Of a stretch of 64,000 nt of DNA, positions 45,845 to 56,035 are shown one piece after another. Position 1 is the first letter of the stretch. Every line of letters begins with the position of its first letter. The stretch covers positions 1,509 through 65,508 of the forward strand of contig JAUXAL010000008.1 in the NCBI GenBank assembly GCA_030619925.1, written 5' to 3'. The notes under the pieces are model-generated. The model was not told the origin of the DNA. It did not search any database and saw nothing but the letters and a program-made list of their open reading frames with translations. The stretch is from Phycisphaerae bacterium. GTDB lineage: Bacteria > Planctomycetota > Phycisphaerae > Sedimentisphaerales > Anaerobacaceae. Both the position numbers and the translations under genes were made by a program.

Positions 45845-46177
45845 ATGGCATCGCCGGAAAAAGTTCTCGTCATAGATTTGAACAAAAACGCCGAAAACCA
45901 AAAGCTCTTGGATGGCAAGCCGCAGACCTGCGGAATGCGCTCCGGCAGAGTATATTTGGCCCCCGGGCAGGCCTGCGGCCAACATAGTACCGCCAATAAG
46001 GAGGAAGTGCTCGTTTTTCTTGCCGGCCAAGGCGAGCTGCTGATTGGCGAAAATGGCTCTTTTCAAGTCGGCCAGGACAAGGTATCTTATATACCACCGC
46101 ATACGGGACACGACGTTAAAAATATCGGCACCGAACCACTTGTTTACATTTATTGCGTTGCTCCCGTAGTCGAATGA
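45845..46177 (+). CDS. cupin-domain protein
   Basis: G-x5-H-x-(n)-E ... PPHTGHDVKN pattern. Start set at ATG 45845 after a GAGGAGA RBS. Confidence 0.65.
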   Translation: MASPEKVLVIDLNKNAENQKLLDGKPQTCGMRSGRVYLAPGQACGQHSTANKEEVLVFLAGQGELLIGENGSFQVGQDKVSYIPPHTGHDVKNIGTEPLVYIYCVAPVVE

Positions 46178-46394
46178 TTAAGCGAATAAAAATCACGAAA
46201 CTTAGCCGAATAGCGATTTCTAAGGCCGGTAGGCGAAATTTCGGCTCCGGGATTGTCCCGGCCATCGGCCAATCGCTCAAGACCCAAATCGCCCTGATGG
46301 GGCGAAGAACGCCGAAGTTAGTAGGGCTTGAACAGTAAATTGCCAGAAAGTAAGAAATTTTTTGAAAAAATTAAAAAATTTTGAAAAAAAGTGC

Positions 46395-46422
46395 TTGCAA
46401 AAGTTGTTACGGCGCCTATAAT
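46395..46422 (+). promoter_or_regulatory. strong sigma70-like promoter
   Basis: TTGCAA - 16 nt - TATAAT, preceded by an A/T-rich UP-like tract (ttgaaaaaaattaaaaaattttgaaaaaaa). Confidence 0.55.
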
Positions 46423-46531
46423 TGAGATTGTATTAATAGCTCTTTTCTTCTCATACATCTTGGCTTTGGTGAGGCAGTAGATACTTTATAAGTTTGCAGT
46501 ATATCCTCTAAATGAAAACCTGTCTCACAAA

Positions 46532-46565
46532 GGCTGGAATCATCAGGGTTCCAGCCTTTTCTTTT
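46532..46565 (+). terminator. intrinsic terminator about 135 nt downstream of the 46395 promoter
   Basis: ggctggaa-tcatcaggg-ttccagcc followed by ttttctttt. Confidence 0.7.
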
Positions 46566-46883
46566 GCGCCTCTGACTCGCCCAGCTCATCGGCAGCTAAT
46601 CGAGCTGACGCCTGACTGCTCTTTCTGCAGGCGTATTCCATTAACTGCCTGATATTCCCTGATGAATACTGCCTTGAACCGGGTAAGGGCCTGCCGTAAC
46701 CCCAAAGCTCCAAAGCTCTTGCAATCTCAAATTTGCCTTGATAGCGATTTCGTCATCTGGTAAAATGGACAAGCCTGTGAAAGGAGAAGCTATTTGTATC
46801 CCTTTGCATGTGAACCACTCTGATTTGCCAAACTTATAAAGCGAAATTGCGTGAAATAAGATAGTAAAAGAAAGGGTAACATT

Positions 46884-47675
46884 ATGCACAAGGCAAGAGG
46901 GTTTACCTTGATAGAGCTTCTGGTGGTAATCGCCATCATTGCGTTATTGATGGCGATATTGATGCCGGCACTGCAGCGGGTCAAGCAACAAGCGAGGACG
47001 GCTGCTTGTCAATCGAAGCTGCACCAATGGAGCCTTGCCTTTTCGATGTATGCGACTCAGAACGATGGGCGTATGTTCGCAGCTTATCACGGCGGCGGCA
47101 CTACGGACAGCGACGTCTGGGGCAACGCCCTTCGGCCGTACTACAAGGAACCTGATCTGCGCCTGTGCCCAACGGCCATGAAGGCTTACGATGAGGGTGG
47201 CTCGGTCACATTTGGAGCCTATCGCAGGTCTCGCTTGCAACATCATAATGATCACGGTCTCGGAAGCTATGGGCTAAGTACCTGGGCCGGTAATGCTCCG
47301 CTGGGAATGGAGGCACATTACCAATATGAGACTAAATATCAGTGGAGGCGTTTCGATGTTAGGGATGCAGGTTACATACCGCTGTTGATGGATGCCCAGT
47401 GGGTCGATGGCTGGGCAATGGCCGTCGATGAACCGCCGGAATATAGTGGTGAGCCGTGGCAGGCCCGCGGCGGTCACACCGGTGGTCTCAGGCGTTTCTG
47501 CGTCAACCGACACAACGGCTTCACAAACGGTCTTTTTATGGATTTCTCTGTCAGGAAGATTGGACTTAAGGAGTTGTGGGAGCTTAAGTGGCATCGAAAT
47601 TGGACCGAAGAGAGAGCCAACGCCGGCACGCCCGTATGGCCGGATTGGATGAGGAATTTTAAAGACTACGACTGA
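46884..47675 (+). CDS. prepilin-leader protein, DUF1559/H-X9-DG-like family (paralog 1 of 8)
   Basis: [30 protein letters not shown] (prepilin cleavage/methylation motif). C-terminal NRH-x9-DF and GLKELWELKWH motifs. Confidence 0.85.
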   Translation: MHKARGFTLIELLVVIAIIALLMAILMPALQRVKQQARTAACQSKLHQWSLAFSMYATQNDGRMFAAYHGGGTTDSDVWGNALRPYYKEPDLRLCPTAMKAYDEGGSVTFGAYRRSRLQHHNDHGLGSYGLSTWAGNAPLGMEAHYQYETKYQWRRFDVRDAGYIPLLMDAQWVDGWAMAVDEPPEYSGEPWQARGGHTGGLRRFCVNRHNGFTNGLFMDFSVRKIGLKELWELKWHRNWTEERANAGTPVWPDWMRNFKDYD

Positions 47676-47900
47676 AAATGATTATTAGAAAAAAGCGGGC
47701 AAAAGAGTCCTGATTTTGTCATACTTATAAAACAGGATTATCAAAAGTAAAGTAGTTCTGAAAGGAAAGCAGGAAGGAGTGGAAACACTCTGGGAATATC
47801 CGGGAAAATGTTGGTCCAAGTCCCCTAGCAATCCCCACCCGGAGGGTCTGGCTAGGCCTGCTTTCCTTCTCCTACGAGGAGATATGCAAGGAACACTATC

Positions 47901-48746
47901 ATGGGTAAACCAAGAGGTTTTACATTAATTGAGCTTTTGGTGGTAATCGCCATAATTGCGCTGTTGATGGCGATATTGATGCCGGCGCTCCAGCGGGTAA
48001 AGCATCAGGCAAGGACAGTCGCCTGTCAGGCCTTGCTGAAACAATGGGGCGTTATCTGGTCGATGTATTGCGATGATAACGATGGCAATTTCAGCAGAGG
48101 TCTTGTTGGCGGCTCTGGATGGCATCGTGGAGAATGGATAATTTGCCTGCGGTCTCTGTACCAGACAAAGACAGATATTCTCCGGTGCCCGTCGGCCACT
48201 AAACGGCACCCTAATGGAAACCAGTGGGGCAGCACGTTCTACACCTACTATATGCCGTTGGGCGGAAGCGGCAGCATAGGAGGCGGTGAAGAACCCAGCT
48301 ACGGGGGAAACAACTGGATTTATGACCCGGCGGCGGGCACAAGCGCGATTCAGGGCCGACCGGCTGCATGGAACTGGAGGACCAAAAACGTCAAAGGTGC
48401 GGCCCTCGCACCGGTCTTCGCAGATGCCATGTGGAGAGGAGGCGGGCCTTGCTATCGTACTAATGAGAGTGGTCCACTCGACCCTAAATTCAACCGCATC
48501 ATTCCGCCCGAATACGACGGTCAATGGATCAACTACTCCAACGAAATGATGCACTTCGCCATCGACCGACACAACGCGTTTGTAAACCACCTTTTCATGG
48601 ATTGGTCCGTCAGAAGAGTTGGTATTAAGGAGTTGTGGAAGCTCAAGTGGCATCGCCGGTTCAGCGTAAACGGCCCTTGGACCAAAGTCGGTGGTGTCCA
48701 GCCCAGCGATTGGCCTCATTGGATGAGAAAGTTTAAAGAGCACTAA
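47901..48746 (+). CDS. prepilin-leader protein, DUF1559/H-X9-DG-like family (paralog 2)
   Basis: [33 protein letters not shown]-x9-DW, GIKELWKLKWH. Confidence 0.85.
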   Translation: MGKPRGFTLIELLVVIAIIALLMAILMPALQRVKHQARTVACQALLKQWGVIWSMYCDDNDGNFSRGLVGGSGWHRGEWIICLRSLYQTKTDILRCPSATKRHPNGNQWGSTFYTYYMPLGGSGSIGGGEEPSYGGNNWIYDPAAGTSAIQGRPAAWNWRTKNVKGAALAPVFADAMWRGGGPCYRTNESGPLDPKFNRIIPPEYDGQWINYSNEMMHFAIDRHNAFVNHLFMDWSVRRVGIKELWKLKWHRRFSVNGPWTKVGGVQPSDWPHWMRKFKEH

Positions 48747-48877
48747 GAAAATCACCGCTGCACAAAAGAGCGCAACTGCCAAAAAGTTGATAGAAAACAC
48801 CCTATGGCAAGGCTGCGATTCACCGGCTTTAGGGCGGGAGAACCATATTTTGATACTTCGCATTAACAAGTTTAATA

Positions 48878-48906
48878 TTGCAAAAAAAACAGATTCAAGG
48901 TATAAT
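48878..48906 (+). promoter_or_regulatory. sigma70-like promoter upstream of paralog 3
   Basis: TTGCAA - 17 nt - TATAAT, 30 nt upstream of ATG 48936. Confidence 0.55.
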
Positions 48907-48935
48907 ACCTCCCAGCAAGGGGAAAGGGTGCTGGT

Positions 48936-49904
48936 ATGAACAAATCAAGGGGTTTTACCCCGTTAGAAATCAGTCGAACTTGTCTGACGACAGTCAAGAT
49001 TCGGAAGGTATCAGAGCTTCGAGCGGGATTTCTAACGGGCCCCGTTAGAGACCCGAAGGACAAAGGTTCTAACGGGGCGGGGTTTACATTAATAGAGCTT
49101 TTGGTGGTAATTGCTATTATTGCATTACTGATGGCGATCTTGATGCCCTCACTGCAGCGCGTAAAGAAACAGGCAAAGGCAGTTGTTTGCCGGTCGAACT
49201 TGAAGCAATGGGGTGTCGTCTTTGCGATGTATACCGGCGACAACGACGGCTCTTTCCCCAGTGGTGATGTTGATAACGCCCCCATTAAGGATCCGACGGG
49301 GCTGTGGATGTATGCGCTACGGCCGTACTACAGTGACGGACAGCTACGCCTCTGCCCAATGGCCACGAAACCTTGGACGAAGGGAGCCCGGCAGCCGTTT
49401 GCAGCCTGGGGGCCTATCTCCTCCTATGAGCCCGGCTACTGGCCTACTGAGCCCGACACTCCAGCGGCTAATTACCTCAGCTATGGGCTGAATGACTGGG
49501 TTCGCAATACTCCACAGAAGTCTTCTCGCGGACTGGGTGGTATAGATAGACTTCCCTTGCTCTGGAGGACTCCCAATGTTAAAGGTGCAGGTAATATACC
49601 GGTGCTTTTGGACAGCTCCTTTTTCGGGTCCGATCCATACCACACCGATCAACCTCCGGAATATGATGGTAATGTGGTGGTGGAATTCAATCAAAATGAA
49701 ATGAAGCGTTTCTGCCTCAACCGACACCAAAATGGGACGACAAACGGCGTTTTTGTGGATTGGTCTGTCAGAGAGATTGGGCTTAAGGAGTTGTGGAAGC
49801 TCAAGTGGCATCGAGAGTTCGACATATCCGGCCCCTGGACCCAAGCCGGTGGCGTCCGGCCGAGCGATTGGCCCGAATGGATGAAAAGGTTTAAAGACTA
49901 CTGA
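48936..49904 (+). CDS. prepilin-leader protein (paralog 3) with a 43-codon insertion in the leader
   Basis: MNKSRGFT[PLE...SNGAGFT]LIELLVV, NRH-x10-DW, GLKELWKLKWH. Near-identical to paralog 6 over most of its length. Confidence 0.8.
   Translation: MNKSRGFTPLEISRTCLTTVKIRKVSELRAGFLTGPVRDPKDKGSNGAGFTLIELLVVIAIIALLMAILMPSLQRVKKQAKAVVCRSNLKQWGVVFAMYTGDNDGSFPSGDVDNAPIKDPTGLWMYALRPYYSDGQLRLCPMATKPWTKGARQPFAAWGPISSYEPGYWPTEPDTPAANYLSYGLNDWVRNTPQKSSRGLGGIDRLPLLWRTPNVKGAGNIPVLLDSSFFGSDPYHTDQPPEYDGNVVVEFNQNEMKRFCLNRHQNGTTNGVFVDWSVREIGLKELWKLKWHREFDISGPWTQAGGVRPSDWPEWMKRFKDY
48959..49077. mobile_element. two adjacent hairpin (MITE-like) elements with CCGTTAGA(A) terminal inverted repeats, in frame in the leader of paralog 3
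   Basis: Unit A has a 13-bp perfect stem, cccgttagaaatc (48959-48971) / gatttctaacggg (49027-49039). Unit B has a 10-bp perfect stem, ccccgttaga (49040-49049) / tctaacgggg (49068-49077). Confidence 0.7.
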
Positions 49905-50009
49905 AAATAACCGTCCCGCAAAAACGAACAAAAAAATACGATTTTGCCGAACTTATACAACAAAATTGCGAAAAGGAAAGCGGCGAAAAGACACCGAAGG
50001 AGTATTGGA

Positions 50010-50933
50010 ATGGATAAACGAAAAGGGTTTACCCCGTTAGAAAGAAATCGGATTCGGAAGGTACCAGAGCTTCGAGGGCGAGTTCTCCGCAGTCCACAGG
50101 ATGGCCAAGCCCAGATGGCCAAGCCCATAACGGGGTTTACCTTAATAGAACTTTTGGTTGTAATCGCCATTATTGCGTTACTGATGGCGATCTTGATGCC
50201 CGCACTACAGCGGGTAAAGAAACAGGCACGAGGGGTCGCTTGCCAGATGAACCTCAAACAGTGGGGCATTATCTGGGCAATGTATTGTGGCGATAACGAC
50301 GGCTACTGGCTTAGCGGCGAAGGCCGTGGCAGCGGCAGATGGTGGTTCCAGCCGATGAGTGAGCTCTACACTGTTGAGGCAAAGATACGGGTCTGTCCCC
50401 AGGCCGCTAAACCTTCCGGTCGCGGGAAAATAGGTGCGTGGGCGGATCATGCTTGGATAGTCACAGACCCAGGCATTGAATATATAGGCAGCTACGGCCC
50501 GAATGGGTGGATGTGCAACCATCGGCCGGGAGCGTCAACAGTATGGAGCCGCCCGACTAAGGATAGTCAAGGCAGGCTGATGCATTGGAAGACCCCCAAT
50601 GTTCAGGGTGCGGACAATATACCGTTATTTACCGGTAGTTGGTGGGTTGATGCCTGGCCAAGGGACAATGACCAACCTCCTGATATTACAGCCACCTACG
50701 CGGCGATCCCGGATAGGCCTAATACAAATGAAATGGAGCGCAATTGCGTCAACCGGCACGGTGGATTCTTAAACGGCCTTTTTTGCGATTGGTCCGCCAG
50801 AAAAATTGGACTTAAGGAGCTCTGGACATTAAAGTGGCATAGAACTTACGACATAAACGGCCCCTGGACCAAAGCCGGCAATGCCCAGCCAAGCGACTGG
50901 CCGATGTGGATGAGAAGCTTTAAGGATTACTAA
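50010..50933 (+). CDS. prepilin-leader protein (paralog 4) with a 36-codon insertion in the leader
   Basis: AAGGAG RBS then MDKRKGFT[PLERN...KPITGFT]LIELLVV, NRH-x9-DW. An alternative internal start, [14 protein letters not shown], is possible. Confidence 0.8.
50034..50132. mobile_element. 99-nt insertion flanked by the 9-bp direct repeat GGGTTTACC, with termini CCGTTAG / ATAACGG
   Basis: GGGTTTACC at 50025-50033 and 50133-50141. The interior shares gattcggaaggtaYcagagcttcgag with the element in paralog 3. Confidence 0.7.
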
Positions 50934-50977
50934 TAACGCTTCCAACGCAACGAAGGGATACGAAACGAATATCATTT

Positions 50978-51796
50978 ATGAACAAACAAAAAGGGTTCAC
51001 CTTAATAGAACTTTTGGTGGTAATCGCTATCATTGCGCTGTTGATGGCCATATTGATGCCGGCGCTGCAGCGTGTCAAGAAACAGGCAAAAGCCGTTGTT
51101 TGCCAGTCAAACCTCAAGCAATGGGGCACTATCTTTGCCATGTACACCAACGACAACAACGGCTTCTTTTCCAGACGCACGCAGTCGGGCGGTCGTTGGA
51201 TAAATGTCCTGTACGACTACTACTATCGGGAGGAGAAGATACGCGTCTGCCCGATGGCGACAAAAATTAAGGTCCCGTACCCGCCCGGGTCCACTAGCAC
51301 ACTTGTAGTAGGTGGCGACAAATTTACGTCATGGGGCAAGATCGGTATGACGCCAAACGAAAGTTGGGGGCCAGTCGGTACCTACGGCAGCTACGGGATA
51401 AATGGCTACCTTTATGTGCCAGGGAGCGACCCATTGTACGGAAAGCCGGCTGATTATTACTGGAGAACTCCTAATGTCAAGGGTGGATATAATATACCGA
51501 TGTTTCTGGACGGCTGGTTCTTTTGCGGCTGGCCAGAGCATACCAATACCCCCCCGAACTACGATGGAGACAGATGGGCAAGTGACGCAAATGCAATGAA
51601 CCGTTTCTGCATCAACCGTCACGACGGATTCATAAACGGCCTTTTTTGCGATTGGTCCGCCAGAAAAATTGGACTTAAGGAGCTCTGGACATTAAAGTGG
51701 CATAGAACTTACGACATAAACGGTCCCTGGACCAAAGCCGGCAATGCCCAGCCAAGCGACTGGCCGATGTGGATGAGAAGCTTTAAGGATTACTGA
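50978..51796 (+). CDS. prepilin-leader protein (paralog 5)
   Basis: [33 protein letters not shown]-x9-DW. The last 162 nt are virtually identical to paralog 4. Confidence 0.85.
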   Translation: MNKQKGFTLIELLVVIAIIALLMAILMPALQRVKKQAKAVVCQSNLKQWGTIFAMYTNDNNGFFSRRTQSGGRWINVLYDYYYREEKIRVCPMATKIKVPYPPGSTSTLVVGGDKFTSWGKIGMTPNESWGPVGTYGSYGINGYLYVPGSDPLYGKPADYYWRTPNVKGGYNIPMFLDGWFFCGWPEHTNTPPNYDGDRWASDANAMNRFCINRHDGFINGLFCDWSARKIGLKELWTLKWHRTYDINGPWTKAGNAQPSDWPMWMRSFKDY

Positions 51797-51840
51797 TAAC
51801 GTTTCCAAAGCGGCGAGGAGATACAGAGCGAATGTCATTT

Positions 51841-52698
51841 ATGAACAAACTAAAAGGGTTTACCCGCCATACGCGTGGCGGGTTTACCTTAATAGAACTT
51901 TTGGTGGTAATCGCTATCATTGCGCTATTGATGGCGATACTAATGCCCGCACTGCAGCGGGTGAAGAAGCAGGCACAAGCAGTTAAGTGTCAGGCACACC
52001 TTAAACAATGGGGTGTCGTCTTTGCGATGTATACCGGCGACAACGACGGCTCTTTCCCCAGTGGTGATAACACCGCTCCTAATGATCCGACGGGAATGTG
52101 GATGTATGTGCTACGGCCGTACTACAGTGACGGACAGCTACGCCTCTGCCCAATGGCCACGAAACCTTCGAATAAGGGAGCCCGGCAGCCGTTTGCAGCG
52201 TGGGGGCCCATCTCCTCCTATGAGCCCGGCTACTGGCCTACTGAGCCCGACACTCCAGCGGCTAATTACCTCAGCTATGGGCTGAATGACTGGGTTCGCA
52301 ATGATCCACGGACGTCTTCTCGTGGACTGGGTGGTATAGATAGACTTCCCTTGCTCTGGAGGACTCCCAATGTTAAAGGTGCAGGTAATATACCGGTGCT
52401 TTTGGACAGCTCCTTTTTCGGGTCCGATCCATACCACACTGATCAACCTCCGGAATATGATGGTAATGTGGTGGTGGAATTCAATCAAAATGAAATGAAG
52501 CGTTTCTGCCTCAACCGACACCAAAATGGGACGACAAACGGCGTTTTTGCGGATTGGTCTGTCAGAGAGATTGGGCTTAAGGAGTTGTGGAAGCTCAAGT
52601 GGCATCGAGAGTTCGACATATCCGGCCCCTGGACCCAAGCCGGCGGCGTCCAACCGGGCGACTGGCCGCTATGGATGAGAAACTTTAAGGATTACTAA
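51841..52698 (+). CDS. prepilin-leader protein (paralog 6) with an 8-codon leader insertion
   Basis: MNKLKGFT[RHTRGGFT]LIELLVV. Start set at the ATGAAC conserved with paralogs 5 and 7. Confidence 0.85.
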   Translation: MNKLKGFTRHTRGGFTLIELLVVIAIIALLMAILMPALQRVKKQAQAVKCQAHLKQWGVVFAMYTGDNDGSFPSGDNTAPNDPTGMWMYVLRPYYSDGQLRLCPMATKPSNKGARQPFAAWGPISSYEPGYWPTEPDTPAANYLSYGLNDWVRNDPRTSSRGLGGIDRLPLLWRTPNVKGAGNIPVLLDSSFFGSDPYHTDQPPEYDGNVVVEFNQNEMKRFCLNRHQNGTTNGVFADWSVREIGLKELWKLKWHREFDISGPWTQAGGVQPGDWPLWMRNFKDY

Positions 52699-52742
52699 TA
52701 ACGCTTCCAAAGCAACGAAGAGATACGGAACAAATATCATTT

Positions 52743-53525
52743 ATGAACAAACAAAAAGGGTTTACCTTGATTGAACTTTTGGTGGTAATTGCTATCATTG
52801 CGCTGTTGATGGCGATATTAATGCCGGTACTGCAGCGGGTGAAGAAGCAGGCACAGGCAGTTAGGTGTCGGGCACACCTTAAACAATGGGGGGTCGTTTT
52901 TGCGATGTACACCGGCGACAACGACAACAAATTCATGCACTGGAATGCAGGCGTATGGGTGGAACCGCTCAGGCCCTATTATAAAGACGTTGGTGAGGCA
53001 ATGCGTGTCTGTCCGACAGCTACAAGGAGTCTTGAGGAAGGAGCTCTTCATACGTTTGCCGCGTGGGACAGGGTAAATACGTACACCAAGGATGAGAGGG
53101 TTTATCGCGGCAGCCTTGGTATCAACAACTGGGTTTATAACCGGCCGCCGGGCGCAGACACCTCAGCTCTTATGTGGGGCAATCCCTCTGCCAATAACTG
53201 GACGGTTACCGAGATTAAAGGCGCCAACAATGTACCGCTGTTTCAAGATTGCTGGCGCTGGGGCGGTGCTCCATATGACACACGGGATAGCGCTTCTCCA
53301 AGCGGCTGGAATGAGCCTCCCCCGTATGAAGACATTTTCACGAATGGTTTTGGGCGTTTCTGTCTGAACCGGCACAATGGGACAATTAATGGCTGTTTTG
53401 TGGATTTCACTGTCAGAGCAATAGGGCTAAAGGAAATGTGGAGGCTTAAGTGGCATAGAGTATTCGATATACATGCTGAGTCGCCGGTTTGGCCGGAATG
53501 GATGAACAATTTCAGGGATTACTGA
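52743..53525 (+). CDS. prepilin-leader protein (paralog 7)
   Basis: [33 protein letters not shown]-x9-DF, GLKEMWRLKWH. Confidence 0.85.
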   Translation: MNKQKGFTLIELLVVIAIIALLMAILMPVLQRVKKQAQAVRCRAHLKQWGVVFAMYTGDNDNKFMHWNAGVWVEPLRPYYKDVGEAMRVCPTATRSLEEGALHTFAAWDRVNTYTKDERVYRGSLGINNWVYNRPPGADTSALMWGNPSANNWTVTEIKGANNVPLFQDCWRWGGAPYDTRDSASPSGWNEPPPYEDIFTNGFGRFCLNRHNGTINGCFVDFTVRAIGLKEMWRLKWHRVFDIHAESPVWPEWMNNFRDY

Positions 53526-53624
53526 GAAACAACCCTTGCACAAAAACCCACAAAAGATTATACTGGACTTGCAAGACAAAACTGCAAAAAGTAAACCAGC
53601 GAAGAATACAGAAGGAGTATCATT

Positions 53625-54437
53625 ATGGGCAAACAAAAGGCTTTTACCCTGATAGAACTTCTGGTGGTAATTGCCATTATCGCTATATTGATGGCGATAT
53701 TGATGCCCGCACTGAATAAAGCCAGAGAACAGGGCAAACGTGCGGCCTGCCTGAGCAATCTAAAGCAGCTGACACTTTCATGGATTATGTATGCAGATGA
53801 AAACGACGACAAAATTGTTAGCGGCGACGGAGGTGTTTGGCACACATATAATGGGGTCGTTGAGACCCCCTGGGTCGGCAGGTGTTGGCACAGTAATTAC
53901 AGAGGCGGCGACCAGCTACCGGTGGAAGAGCAAAAACTTGAAATCAAAAAAGGAGCTCTATGGTCGTATTGTAAGAACCTGCAGCTCTACCGCTGCCCGA
54001 CCGGTACGCGAGGAGAGCTGGTAACCTATGCTGCAATGGATTCTATGAATGGTCATCCTCTGCCGAATAATCCCAAGGGCAGAGGTGCAGACGCCGTCAT
54101 AAAGAGATTGCTCATTAAGAAACGGCTCACGATTCGCAGCCCGGATCAGAGGATAGTTTTTATTGATGAAGGCTGGGTAACACCGGACAGTTACGCTGTT
54201 TATCAAAATAGACAAGAATGGTGGGACGACCCTATGGTGCGGCACGGTAACGGGACGAGCGTTTCTCTTGCAGATGGTCACAGCGAATACTGGAAGTGGA
54301 AAGGCCCCGAGACGATAAAGGGCGGCAAGCTGCGCGACCGCACTCACCCTTCCCAGCATGTTGTGCCTCAAAGCGAGCCGGGCCACGAGGATTTGTACAG
54401 AGTCAGGAAGTCCTGTTGGTGGGAGATAGAGGGTTAG
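53625..54437 (+). CDS. prepilin-leader protein with canonical H-X9-DG motif (paralog 8, divergent subfamily)
   Basis: [40 protein letters not shown]-terminal [19 protein letters not shown] (H-x9-DG). Confidence 0.85.
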
Positions 54438-54613
54438 ATAAAGCCATAGGCAATTTTTTGTGCTTCTTGTTTTTTGTTCGTCGGCCGTAGATAATCGAGG
54501 GACTCCTCAAGCTGATTCGTCAATAAGCAGGTACTGCGATGGGATTCTATGGTTCCGGTTCTGCTATCTGACGCAAACCTGTGTGCCTATCGGCTCAAGT
54601 TGGAAGGAGCTTT

Positions 54614-54895
54614 TTAACTGTGCGGCTTTCCGTTTATTAACGCAGCTAATAGGATATGTCTTAACCTGTCAACGCTGAGGTTGTTGAGGTAATCTTCGGT
54701 AAAATCCAGCTTAAATCGGCCTCTGAAATTTTTGATTCGTTTCTCAAGCTCGGTCCTGCCTAAAGCAGCGATTGAAGTAGTCGTTTGTTCGAAGTACTCT
54801 CTTGAACCCATCGTCTTGACCTTTGAAGGACCAATTCTTAATAAGTTGGATTTGCATTCAGTATCGTCCCTTGCGTCAACCCACTTCTGCGACAA
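54614..54895 (-). CDS. small hypothetical protein
   Basis: 93-aa ORF (or 65 aa from the ATG at 54811) with plausible helical composition (TELEKRIKNFRGRFKLDFTEDYLNNLSVDRLRHILLAAL). No recognised motif. Confidence 0.4.
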   Translation of the reverse strand: MSQKWVDARDDTECKSNLLRIGPSKVKTMGSREYFEQTTTSIAALGRTELEKRIKNFRGRFKLDFTEDYLNNLSVDRLRHILLAALINGKPHS

Positions 54896-54985
54896 ATTCC
54901 GTATCGCATTCCAAACCCTTAAATTAGCTTATTATTGGCCTAAAATTTTTTTGTCATTTTGCCGACCGTCTGATAACGTTGGGTT

Positions 54986-56035
54986 ATGAAGACGGAAAAG
55001 CTAAATTATCACCTGCCACCCGAGTTGATTGCCCAGCAGCCTCTTGGTATTCGAAGCGACTCGCGGCTGCTGGCTCTTAATCGCTCCAAAGGCGATATTT
55101 TGGACAGCCGGTTCAGCAAACTCGGCGATTTTCTCTCGCCCGGAGATTGCCTTGTGCTCAACGATACGAAGGTTTTGCCCGCTCGTTTTTTTGCACGTCG
55201 AACTACCGGTGGAAAACTCGAAGGTTTATTCCTCGCCCAAAATACTGATAGAACCTGGGATATAATGATAAAAGGTACACGCAAACTAAAACCCGGCGAC
55301 CTGTTATATCTGAAGGACAGGCAAAAAGATGATTTTTGCAAAGCAACTTTGCTCGAAAAGAAGGGTGACGGCAGATGCCGGCTGAAGCTAAAAACGGATG
55401 CAGACGCCGAGACTGTCCTCGATAGAATTGGCTTTCCACCACTGCCGCCATATATCAAACGTGACGACGACCCTGCTGTAGCCCAGGTGGATAAACTGCG
55501 GTATCAAACGGTTTATGCCCGCGAGCCCGGCGCCGTCGCGGCGCCAACCGCTGGGCTGCACTTTACAAACGGGCTGATCGAGCAATTAAAACAGGCCGGA
55601 ATCCGCTTTGCGTATATAACGCTGCATGTAGGAACAGGGACATTTAAACCGATAACCGCAGAGAATCTCGAAGACCACAAAATCCATCAGGAGCGGTTCA
55701 GCATCGACGAGAAAAACGCCCGGATAATAAACGCAGCAAAAAGCAAGGGCGGGCGAATAATCCCTGTCGGCACAACTTCGACACGGACCCTCGAGACAAT
55801 AGCCGCCGGCTCAAAAATCAAAGCCGTAAGTAGCACAACAAGTTTATTCATAAAGCCCGGCTATGAATTTAAAATCACCGATGCAATGATAACAAATTTT
55901 CATCTGCCGAAATCGACGTTGCTTGCACTTGTGGCGGCCTTTGCGGGACTGGAAAACATCCTCGCCGCTTACAATCACGCTATCGAGCAGCGATACCGCT
56001 TCTATTCCTACGGCGACGCAATGCTGATTATCTGA
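54986..56035 (+). CDS. queA: S-adenosylmethionine:tRNA ribosyltransferase-isomerase
   Basis: YHLPPELIAQQPL N-terminus, PLPPYI, GAVAAPTAGLHFT, GTTSTRTLE motifs, 349 aa. Confidence 0.9.
   Translation: MKTEKLNYHLPPELIAQQPLGIRSDSRLLALNRSKGDILDSRFSKLGDFLSPGDCLVLNDTKVLPARFFARRTTGGKLEGLFLAQNTDRTWDIMIKGTRKLKPGDLLYLKDRQKDDFCKATLLEKKGDGRCRLKLKTDADAETVLDRIGFPPLPPYIKRDDDPAVAQVDKLRYQTVYAREPGAVAAPTAGLHFTNGLIEQLKQAGIRFAYITLHVGTGTFKPITAENLEDHKIHQERFSIDEKNARIINAAKSKGGRIIPVGTTSTRTLETIAAGSKIKAVSSTTSLFIKPGYEFKITDAMITNFHLPKSTLLALVAAFAGLENILAAYNHAIEQRYRFYSYGDAMLII

Follow-up and report, generated by a model that had tools for sequence, protein, structure and literature searches.

A tandem array of eight prepilin-type genes in a Phycisphaerae genome: seven members of a divergent branch of the H-X9-DG superfamily, and palindromic in-frame leader inserts

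Within the window analysed here, a stretch of 64,000 nucleotides (nt) from a metagenome-assembled genome (MAG) of a Phycisphaerae bacterium, the listing of open reading frames (ORFs) placed eight co-oriented genes on the plus strand, referred to as G1 to G8, which fill positions 46884-54437 exactly (Table 1). All eight passed the two profiles for the N-terminal signal of type IV pilin-like proteins (class III signal peptide), PF07963 N_methyl (cut-off 21.2 bits; scores 28.7-41.2) and TIGR02532 (cut-off 16.3 bits; scores 24.3-33.9), which were the sole Pfam or NCBIfam models passed by any of them. The series of same-strand prepilin-leader paralogs described in a first-pass annotation of this DNA was therefore confirmed. 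In the protein alignment, the residue at position -1 of the cleavage site is Gly in G1-G7 and Ala in G8, and it is followed by Phe at +1, Glu at +5 and a run of about 20 hydrophobic residues; the sequence of the N-terminal helix is invariant across the eight proteins.

The same alignment agreed with a further claim of that annotation, namely that G1-G7 share a variant C-terminal motif and that the canonical form occurs in G8 alone. Specifically, the C-terminus common to G1-G7 starts as C-x-[N/D]-R-H and reads RH-x9/10-D[FW][ST][VA]R.[IV]G[LI]KE[LM]W.LKWH, and a literal H-x9-DG near the C-terminus was found only in G8, where G1-G7 have H-x9/10-D-[F/W]. Deviations from the earlier consensus were minor and comprised A-I-D-R-H in G2, D-F-T in G7 and the Ala at -1 in G8. 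Since DNA repeat families connect all eight genes, and since 229 of the 270 homologs retrieved carry the motif, the array and its motif are far beyond what chance would produce.

Table 1. Genes and other features of the prepilin-type array (positions are those of the window; aa, amino acids; dN/dS, ratio of nonsynonymous to synonymous substitution rates; z, folding score against shuffles).
Feature	Position	Strand	Description
G1	46884..47675	+	263 aa; prepilin-type, H-X9-D[YWF]S subfamily; motif FCVNRH-x9
G1 ortholog in same-genus genome G001			91% identical; dN/dS 0.20
G2	47901..48746	+	281 aa; H-X9-D[YWF]S subfamily; motif FAIDRH-x9-DWSVRRVGIKELWKLKWH
G3	48936..49904	+	322 aa as the ORF reads; H-X9-D[YWF]S subfamily, x10 spacing
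G3 leader insert	48960..49088	+	129 nt in frame, plus second GFT codon copy
G3 true cleavage motif G-F-T-L-I-E	starts 49080		
G3 ortholog in G001			90% identical; without leader insert
G4	50010..50933	+	H-X9-D[YWF]S subfamily; ORF listed from TTG 49944
G4 leader insert	50034..50141	+	108 nt in frame, plus second GGGTTTACC copy; z -3.3
G4 ortholog in G001			95% identical; without leader insert
Gene-conversion tract	50772..50933 (G4 3' end)	+	97-100% DNA identity to G5 51635-51796; gene bodies 40-60%
Repeated junction (3' end + 35-44 nt spacer + next 5' end)	50771..51070	+	copies 51634-51933 and 52536-52835; 80-85% identity
G5	50978..51796	+	272 aa; H-X9-D[YWF]S subfamily; protein used for structure modelling
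G6	51832..52698	+	288 aa; recent duplicate of G3
G6 leader insert	51865..51888	+	24-nt palindrome in frame, CGCCATACGCGTGGC + GGGTTTACC copy; z -4.7
G7	52743..53525	+	260 aa; H-X9-D[YWF]S subfamily; motif FCLNRH-x9-DFTVRAIGLKEMWRLKWH
G7 ortholog in G001			95% identical; dN/dS 0.09
G8	53625..54437	+	270 aa; prepilin-type; separate 13-member paralog cluster; literal RH-x9-DGH

Next, we compared the array proteins with the curated families to which the motif pointed. None of G1-G7 matched PF07596, the Pfam model of DUF1559, at E<=0.1 (cut-off 23.3 bits), and G8 reached 19.4 bits, under the cut-off, over profile positions 2-28 only; genome-wide, matches to this profile were also mostly confined to its first 30-160 positions. 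TIGR04294, the NCBIfam model of prepilin-type processing-associated H-X9-DG proteins (cut-off 19 bits), gave no match to G1-G8 at E<=0.1, and none of its nine matches in the genome lies on C6, the contig which carries the window. Similarly, no Pfam or NCBIfam model covers the globular domain of the G1-G7 family. When the variant globular domain (A3) was aligned with that of the G8-like proteins (A4) by hhalign, however, a probability of 96.5% and an E-value of 8e-10 were obtained over 151 columns, with C-x-N-R-H-x9-D-[WF]-S placed on R-H-x9-D-G-H and with the post-helix Cys and the C-P motif also aligned. Moreover, two paralogs of the variant cluster (on contig C124) still read D-G-S, and both match TIGR04294. 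As judged from these alignments, the variant subfamily was shown to be homologous to, and to grade into, the R-H-x9-D-G-H group that includes G8. Because the two motifs fall on each other and the paralogs that retain DG match TIGR04294, G1-G7 are, on sequence evidence, a divergent and unmodelled branch of the H-X9-DG superfamily and not formal members of the curated families. The kinship with the H-X9-DG/DUF1559 family that the first-pass annotation had claimed is thus upheld, and so is its statement that the function of this family is unknown, in that the DUF1559 literature assigns none; according to it, Planctopirus limnophila has 68 paralogs, of which two are essential, and Rhodopirellula baltica has 74 (PMC10632474, PMC2754498). 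A literature search on H-X9-DG/TIGR04294 and on prepilin-type proteins in Phycisphaerae likewise found nothing functional.

The variant branch is abundant in public data. A search with G5 returned at least 7,988 clusters at 90% identity and, among the named matches, the only labels were 'prepilin-type N-terminal cleavage/methylation domain-containing protein' or 'type II secretion system protein', in Planctomycetota MAGs. The profile of the globular domain alone retrieved 7,702 representatives at 50% identity with E<=1e-3, and 1,258 with E<=1e-30. Full-length relatives in species genomes carried Phycisphaerae, Sedimentisphaerales, Pirellulales or Planctomycetota labels, and relatives at about 35% identity were present in Verrucomicrobiota. 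Across the 229 motif-bearing homologs, the spacing was nine residues in 224, the residue after Asp was Tyr in 93, Trp in 49, Phe in 44 and Gly in 4, and the next residue was Ser in 201, which defines the family motif as C-x-[N/D]-R-H-x9-D-[Y/W/F]-S.

The genome to which the window belongs (G000; 4.02 Mb in 141 contigs, 92.8% complete) was then surveyed with a regular expression, which yielded 95 prepilin-type ORFs, organized into 14 arrays (sizes 9, 8, 5, 5, 4 and 3, and eight of 2) and 37 singletons. The window array is the second largest of these; being one of 14, it is ordinary for the lineage and not special within its genome. When the regions that follow the helix were clustered by BLAST, G1-G7 fell into a cluster of 52 members, 43 with the variant motif and 9 with DGH or DWH, and G8 into a separate cluster of 13. 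G8-like RH-x9-DGH genes were also seen to recur within or at the end of variant arrays, in 4 of 13 cases in the own genome and, in addition, beside queA in two related genomes (G000 C13:18093-26255, C39:8051-10002 and C82:16763-21103; L110:3868-9200; L111:3460-6387). This company hints at a functional pairing of G8-like and variant genes.

A model of G5 was computed with AlphaFold2 from an alignment of 84 sequences, with a confidence (pLDDT) of 92.8 over the full length and 90.6 over the globular part. The predicted structure comprises a helix at residues 9-59, as in pilins, followed by a mixed domain of about 230 residues. In the model, R214-H215 precede a strand at 218-223, D225 lies in a turn before a strand at 228-232, and GLKELW forms a short helix; given this placement, H-x9-D would be a beta-hairpin, in the turn of which the canonical Gly would sit. 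Invariant in the 84 sequences are C42, W74, C91-P92, R214-H215, W241 and W265 (G5 numbering), with D225, C211 and N220 nearly so, and a disulfide between C42 and C91 is plausible. Foldseek searches with the full model and the globular domain against PDB, and with the globular domain against BFVD, gave no match at E<0.7 and nothing beyond the pilin helix; a sequence search of PDB with the family profile similarly retrieved pilin N-terminal helices only. No solute-binding protein was matched, either by sequence or by fold.

With regard to the history of the array, its queA-linked counterparts were found to vary in size, from 8 genes in G000 to 6 in G001, a genome of the same genus, 3 in G003 and 0 in both G002 and G015. 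The six genes of G001 comprise one-to-one orthologs of G1, G3, G4, G7 and G8 together with one gene missing from the window genome. G3 and G6 share 91% amino acid identity, with a synonymous divergence (dS) of 0.19-0.20 and a dN/dS of 0.26; the other array paralogs are old (dS of at least about 0.8, mostly saturated), most pairs being 57-68% identical in DNA. This identity is unevenly spread, since both ends are conserved (80-93% over the N-terminal 55 codons) and the middle region retains 30-50%. The gene junctions repeated along the array (Table 1) are as would be expected from unequal crossing-over. The closest paralog of G2 is C39:9172-10002 (92% protein identity), itself located beside a G8-like gene, and this pair indicates that a variant gene was recently duplicated from one locus to another; the closest paralog of G5 is a gene in the C13 array (75%). 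Because G2 and G5 are closest to genes at other loci, the array is not a monophyletic local burst. Rather, it appears to be under birth-and-death evolution, in which tandem duplication, unequal crossing-over, short conversion tracts and import from other loci all take part. The local duplication, gene conversion and leader remodelling noticed in the first-pass annotation are accordingly borne out by the G3/G6 duplicate, the tract shared by the 3' ends of G4 and G5, and the leader inserts of G3, G4 and G6 described below.

The term 'diversifying', which that annotation had applied to the repertoire, was not supported. Pairwise dN/dS among paralogs ranged from 0.16 to 0.61, and orthologs of G000 and G001 are 90-96% identical with values of 0.09-0.28, which indicates that each paralog is held by purifying selection. 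In the middle region, ratios of 0.49-0.64 were reached in the G3/G6/H3 lineage only.

The family was also followed across 31 related genomes, in which it is present in 0-50 copies and T2SSE in 10-17. Its copy number did not correlate with that of the ATPases (Spearman rho 0.11, p 0.56), so that a joint variation of T2SSE and family copy number was rejected; it did correlate with genome size (rho 0.70, p 1e-5). Labile in number and uncorrelated with the conserved ATPases, the family behaves as an accessory client of conserved machinery. As for that machinery, profile searches found no Peptidase_A24, T2SSE, T2SSF or secretin on contig C6, nor were any gsp genes found there, which extends to the whole contig the absence of prepilin peptidase, secretion ATPase and platform genes already reported for the window. 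Elsewhere, the genome encodes one PilD-type Peptidase_A24 (on C75), 13 T2SSE-type ATPases, 16 T2SSF domains (about 8 platform proteins) and 8 secretins. GspG-like genes beside E-F operons encode 102-163 aa, and the array proteins are about twice that size. We additionally observed 10-17 T2SSE-type ATPases in every sampled genome of the order (G000 and 30 relatives); this complement of type IV filament machines is unusually large and constant, and a single Peptidase_A24 was detectable in the own genome.

The array is flanked upstream by a Mg-chelatase/ComM-like gene, DsbD_2 and a cupin, and downstream by QueA, a xylose-isomerase-like TIM barrel and an FGGY kinase. Ahead of G1, a promoter-like TTGCAA-16-TATAAT at 46395-46422 is followed by a terminator-like hairpin at 46529-46559 (13-bp stem, T-run), about 320 nt upstream of the gene, and another promoter-like site, at 46738-46766, has an extended -10; the scan for sigma-70 promoters and terminators was not significantly above shuffles. 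The start of G4 is likely the ATG at 50010; an internal ATG at 50115 would yield the leader MAKPITG.

Homologs with other N-termini bear on where the globular domain acts. In four metagenomic homologs (P0125, P0129, P0148 and P0163), the same domain stands behind a Zn_Ribbon_1 and DUF4190 anchor with two transmembrane segments and has no prepilin signal. P0138, P0151, P0161, P0203, P0206 and others keep the globular domain behind a plain signal-anchor, ..FTKKD.VV..GC.., with the look of a degenerate prepilin motif. Taken together, these two groups suggest that the domain would work from an anchor in the cytoplasmic membrane, on the periplasmic side, and that incorporation into a filament would not be obligatory. 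Among the products of genes near other arrays are a GFO/IDH/MocA oxidoreductase, a 3-keto-disaccharide hydrolase, a sulfatase, and LamG and F5/8-C lectin-like proteins; for two homologs located on long contigs, the gene contexts were heterogeneous. Directly upstream of one homolog, L109:8044-9942 encodes a 632-aa protein in which a prepilin N_methyl signal precedes a Pel9A-like/chondroitinase-B-like beta-helix, i.e., the pilin-type signal is used in this lineage on an enzyme-like polysaccharide-lyase domain. These neighbours and the L109 protein are suggestive of carbohydrate processing.

The most unusual item of the locus, and the part that a specialist would find odd, is the presence of in-frame inserts within the leaders. 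G3, G4 and G6 carry extra in-frame codons (129, 108 and 24 nt, respectively) that separate a relic K-G-F-T from the true G-F-T-L-I-E, and all three inserts fold much more strongly than shuffled sequences do (z from -3.3 to -4.7). The G3 insert (z of -3.9) holds two strong hairpins, CCCGTTAGAAAT...ATTTCTAACGGG and CCCCGTTAGAG...TTCTAACGGGG, and has a core, GATTCGGAAGGTAYCAGAGCTTCGAG, in common with the G4 insert; the orthologs of G3 and G4 in G001 carry no insert. A 24-nt insert identical to that of G6 was found in an unrelated paralog, C110:12403, and a related one is doubled in tandem in C27:15080. The identity between G6 and C110:12403 makes a random excision footprint less likely. Overall, inserts occupy the same leader position in 11 of the 95 prepilin genes, distributed over several paralog clusters; none of the 11 shifts the frame or brings in a stop, an outcome with a chance, from frame alone, of about 6e-6. 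Outside the window, the carriers are C3:20168, C27:15080, C45:932, C82:18312, C109:7105, C110:12403, C115:22269 and C139:3127. Among the 270 retrieved homologs, a prepilin motif was found in 232, at least 15 of which have leaders of the form M..K.GFTPLE...(F); metagenomic homologs with similar leaders are P0029, P0108, P0140, P0157, P0210, P0145, P0076, P0078, P0100, P0136, P0170, P0182 and P0218.

The 5' junction of the inserts, GGNYTNRCCCCGTYAGAA, is present in 7 copies in the own genome and in one copy in 200 other genomes of the class. One of these seven copies belongs to orphan leader elements located outside an intact prepilin gene (G000 C40:8960-9120), where the 24-nt unit is followed by CCCGTTAGAAAT...TTCTAACGGG hairpins; on the minus strand this orphan copy reads like a decayed prepilin start (ATGGACAAAAATTTAAACCCCGTTAGAAAC...). 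A search of Rfam (E<=5) over 46000-55000 returned nothing, the leader hairpins thus matching no described RNA family, and the idea that CUGACGA in the G3 insert is hammerhead-like was rejected for want of Rfam support. A high-copy miniature inverted-repeat transposable element was discarded as well, given that only two copies of the 26-nt core common to the G3 and G4 inserts were found in the own genome and none in the 30 relatives. We infer that the leader inserts are small palindromic insertions, either mobile or templated, which would be tolerated since the leader is removed.

Considering all of these results, we regard it as reasonably probable that the array proteins are processed by PilD and serve as membrane-anchored periplasmic modules of differing specificity, optionally carried on pseudopili, and that the array arose by birth and death. 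According to this proposal, each protein would be inserted in the cytoplasmic membrane and cleaved after the Gly or Ala at -1 by the one prepilin peptidase of the genome; the near-invariant hydrophobic N-terminal helix would keep it anchored, leaving the globular domain of about 230 residues and unmatched fold to face the periplasm. It may then act as a tethered module, or be raised onto a short pseudopilus by a type IV filament machine. The variable middle of the domain would give each paralog its own specificity. Our preferred guess for the activity would be the capture of ligands, perhaps glycans. The analogy behind it is the archaeal bindosome, where the Bas system assembles Sulfolobus sugar-binding proteins with class III signal peptides (PMC3047682). 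The array itself would expand and contract through tandem duplication, unequal crossing-over at the junctions, conversion tracts and copies arriving from other loci.

Several points weigh against this proposal. Foldseek found no binding-protein or lectin neighbour of the globular domain in PDB or BFVD, so that describing it as a binding module is an analogy only. An enzyme, or a site for a metal or cofactor, would equally account for the strict conservation of C, R-H, D and several W/Y residues. The genes flanking the window array are unrelated housekeeping genes; the neighbourhoods of the other arrays are heterogeneous, and the carbohydrate-related genes that are frequent in them may be common genome-wide. 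Finally, we infer processing, location, filament incorporation and ligand of the array proteins alike.

Other explanations of the array were considered in the light of the same data. That the proteins are structural pilins or pseudopilins, i.e., major or minor subunits of type IV filaments such as the fibres of Planctomycetota, with paralogs that vary the fibre surface, is in our view rather unlikely, although it would account for the canonical short leader with F+1, E+5 and P22, and for N-terminal 55 codons as alike as is expected for subunits of one assembly machine. It would also be in line with the numerous ATPases and secretins of the genome and with the role in polysaccharide uptake proposed for the fibres from planctomycete crateriform structures (PMC12673574). 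However, G1-G8 scored only 30.6-38.7 bits on the GspG model TIGR01710, far below its cut-off of 88.85 and over the N-terminal 55-63 residues only, their scores on pilin equivalog models were likewise far too low and confined to the N-terminus, they are about twice the size of the GspG-like proteins encoded beside E-F operons, and their copy number does not follow that of the ATPases, 6 of the 31 relatives with 10-15 ATPases having zero copies; in addition, homologs with a Zn-ribbon/DUF4190 anchor cannot polymerise as pilins. The idea of a diversifying surface or secreted repertoire, in which exposed adhesins or antigens change fast under diversifying selection or phase variation, we hold to be improbable. 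The highly variable middle region between conserved ends, the copy number that is very labile between genomes and the raised middle-region dN/dS of the G3/G6/H3 lineage speak for it, and the leader inserts could in principle modulate expression; yet every pairwise dN/dS is below 1, orthologs are well conserved, no invertible or slippage-prone switch was seen, and the homologs with cytoplasmic-membrane anchors oppose obligatory release or surface exposure.

An enzymatic role, whereby R-H...D, Cys and aromatic residues form an active or metal site of membrane-anchored periplasmic enzymes whose substrates differ by paralog, would explain the invariant and near-invariant residues listed above, the resemblance of the canonical H...D-G-H to a metal triad, and the fusion of prepilin signals to enzyme-like domains in the same lineages, such as the Pel9A-like beta-helix beside a homolog. 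Nevertheless, no enzyme family or fold was matched in Pfam/NCBIfam, in the PDB sequence search or by Foldseek, and the second His is missing from the variant branch, where DGH has become D[YWF]S, a loss difficult to square with a superfamily-wide catalytic or metal site; we therefore consider such a role very improbable. It is scarcely credible, lastly, that part of the array is a mis-join in the MAG, with G6, for instance, as a strain variant of G3. The fragmented and incomplete assembly, the 100%-identical stretches of G3 and G6 and the three gene junctions that are 80-85% alike would be compatible with such an error, whereas most paralogs are too divergent in DNA for it, G3 and G6 differ in leaders and flanks, a syntenic six-gene array with five orthologs exists in G001, and similar arrays lie on many contigs.

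A bolder, joint reading draws the two lines of observation together; we offer it by analogy and think it unlikely to hold as a whole. According to this reading, H-X9-D[YWF]S proteins may be a bacterial counterpart of the bindosome, that is, a pilin-anchored and periplasm-facing system of ligand capture with a new fold that would serve macromolecule uptake in Planctomycetota, and the palindromic leader inserts may represent an undescribed small mobile or templated element that targets the conserved DNA of prepilin leaders and would be harmless there as the leader is cut off.

The array is real and typical of its lineage, and its existence is not surprising in itself. In Planctomycetota and their relatives, few paralog families are larger than the prepilin-type H-X9-DG/DUF1559 proteins, which have no assigned function. 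What is new here is a branch, at least 7,700 sequence clusters in size, that curated models miss and in which R-H-x9-D is kept and G-H is swapped for an aromatic residue and Ser; a globular domain that was modelled confidently and has, as predicted, no neighbour among solved structures; and the occurrence of the same domain on ordinary membrane anchors, which narrows its site of action. These results do not reveal the function of the family but make it more tractable, in that constructs for structure and ligand screens are now defined and orthologs can be told from lineage-specific copies.

Compared with known systems, the array proteins resemble TIGR04294/DUF1559 (SBP_bac_10) in their prepilin signal, their size of about 250-350 aa, the dozens of paralogs per genome in the Planctomycetota-Verrucomicrobiota-Chlamydiota (PVC) group, the tandem arrays and the lack of an assigned function, as well as in a homologous globular domain with the conserved post-helix Cys, C-P motif and R-H-x9-D. 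They differ from it in that [Y/W/F]-S replaces the Gly and His of D-G-H in G1-G7, and in the conserved G1-G7 tail [VA]-R-K-[VI]-G-L-K-E-L-W-x-L-K-W-H-R...W-P-x-W-M-x-x-F-K-D-Y, which the G8-like group does not have. With GspG and type IVa pilins they share the short basic leader, G/A at -1, F+1, E+5, P22, an N-terminal helix of about 50 residues (9-59 in the model) and a presumed dependence on a PilD-family peptidase, one of which is encoded in the genome; in contrast to those proteins, they have a globular domain of about double the size, without detectable similarity to pilin heads, no E, F or secretin genes adjoin the array, and there is no relation between their copy number and that of the machines. 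As for the archaeal bindosome, the array proteins have no sequence or fold relation to ABC-type (ATP-binding cassette) solute-binding proteins and no ABC transporter adjoins the array, so that the comparison is not a claim of membership; the likeness would lie in the way of working, with a pilin-type signal placed on non-filament proteins, diverse extracytoplasmic domains and a type IV filament-like machine.

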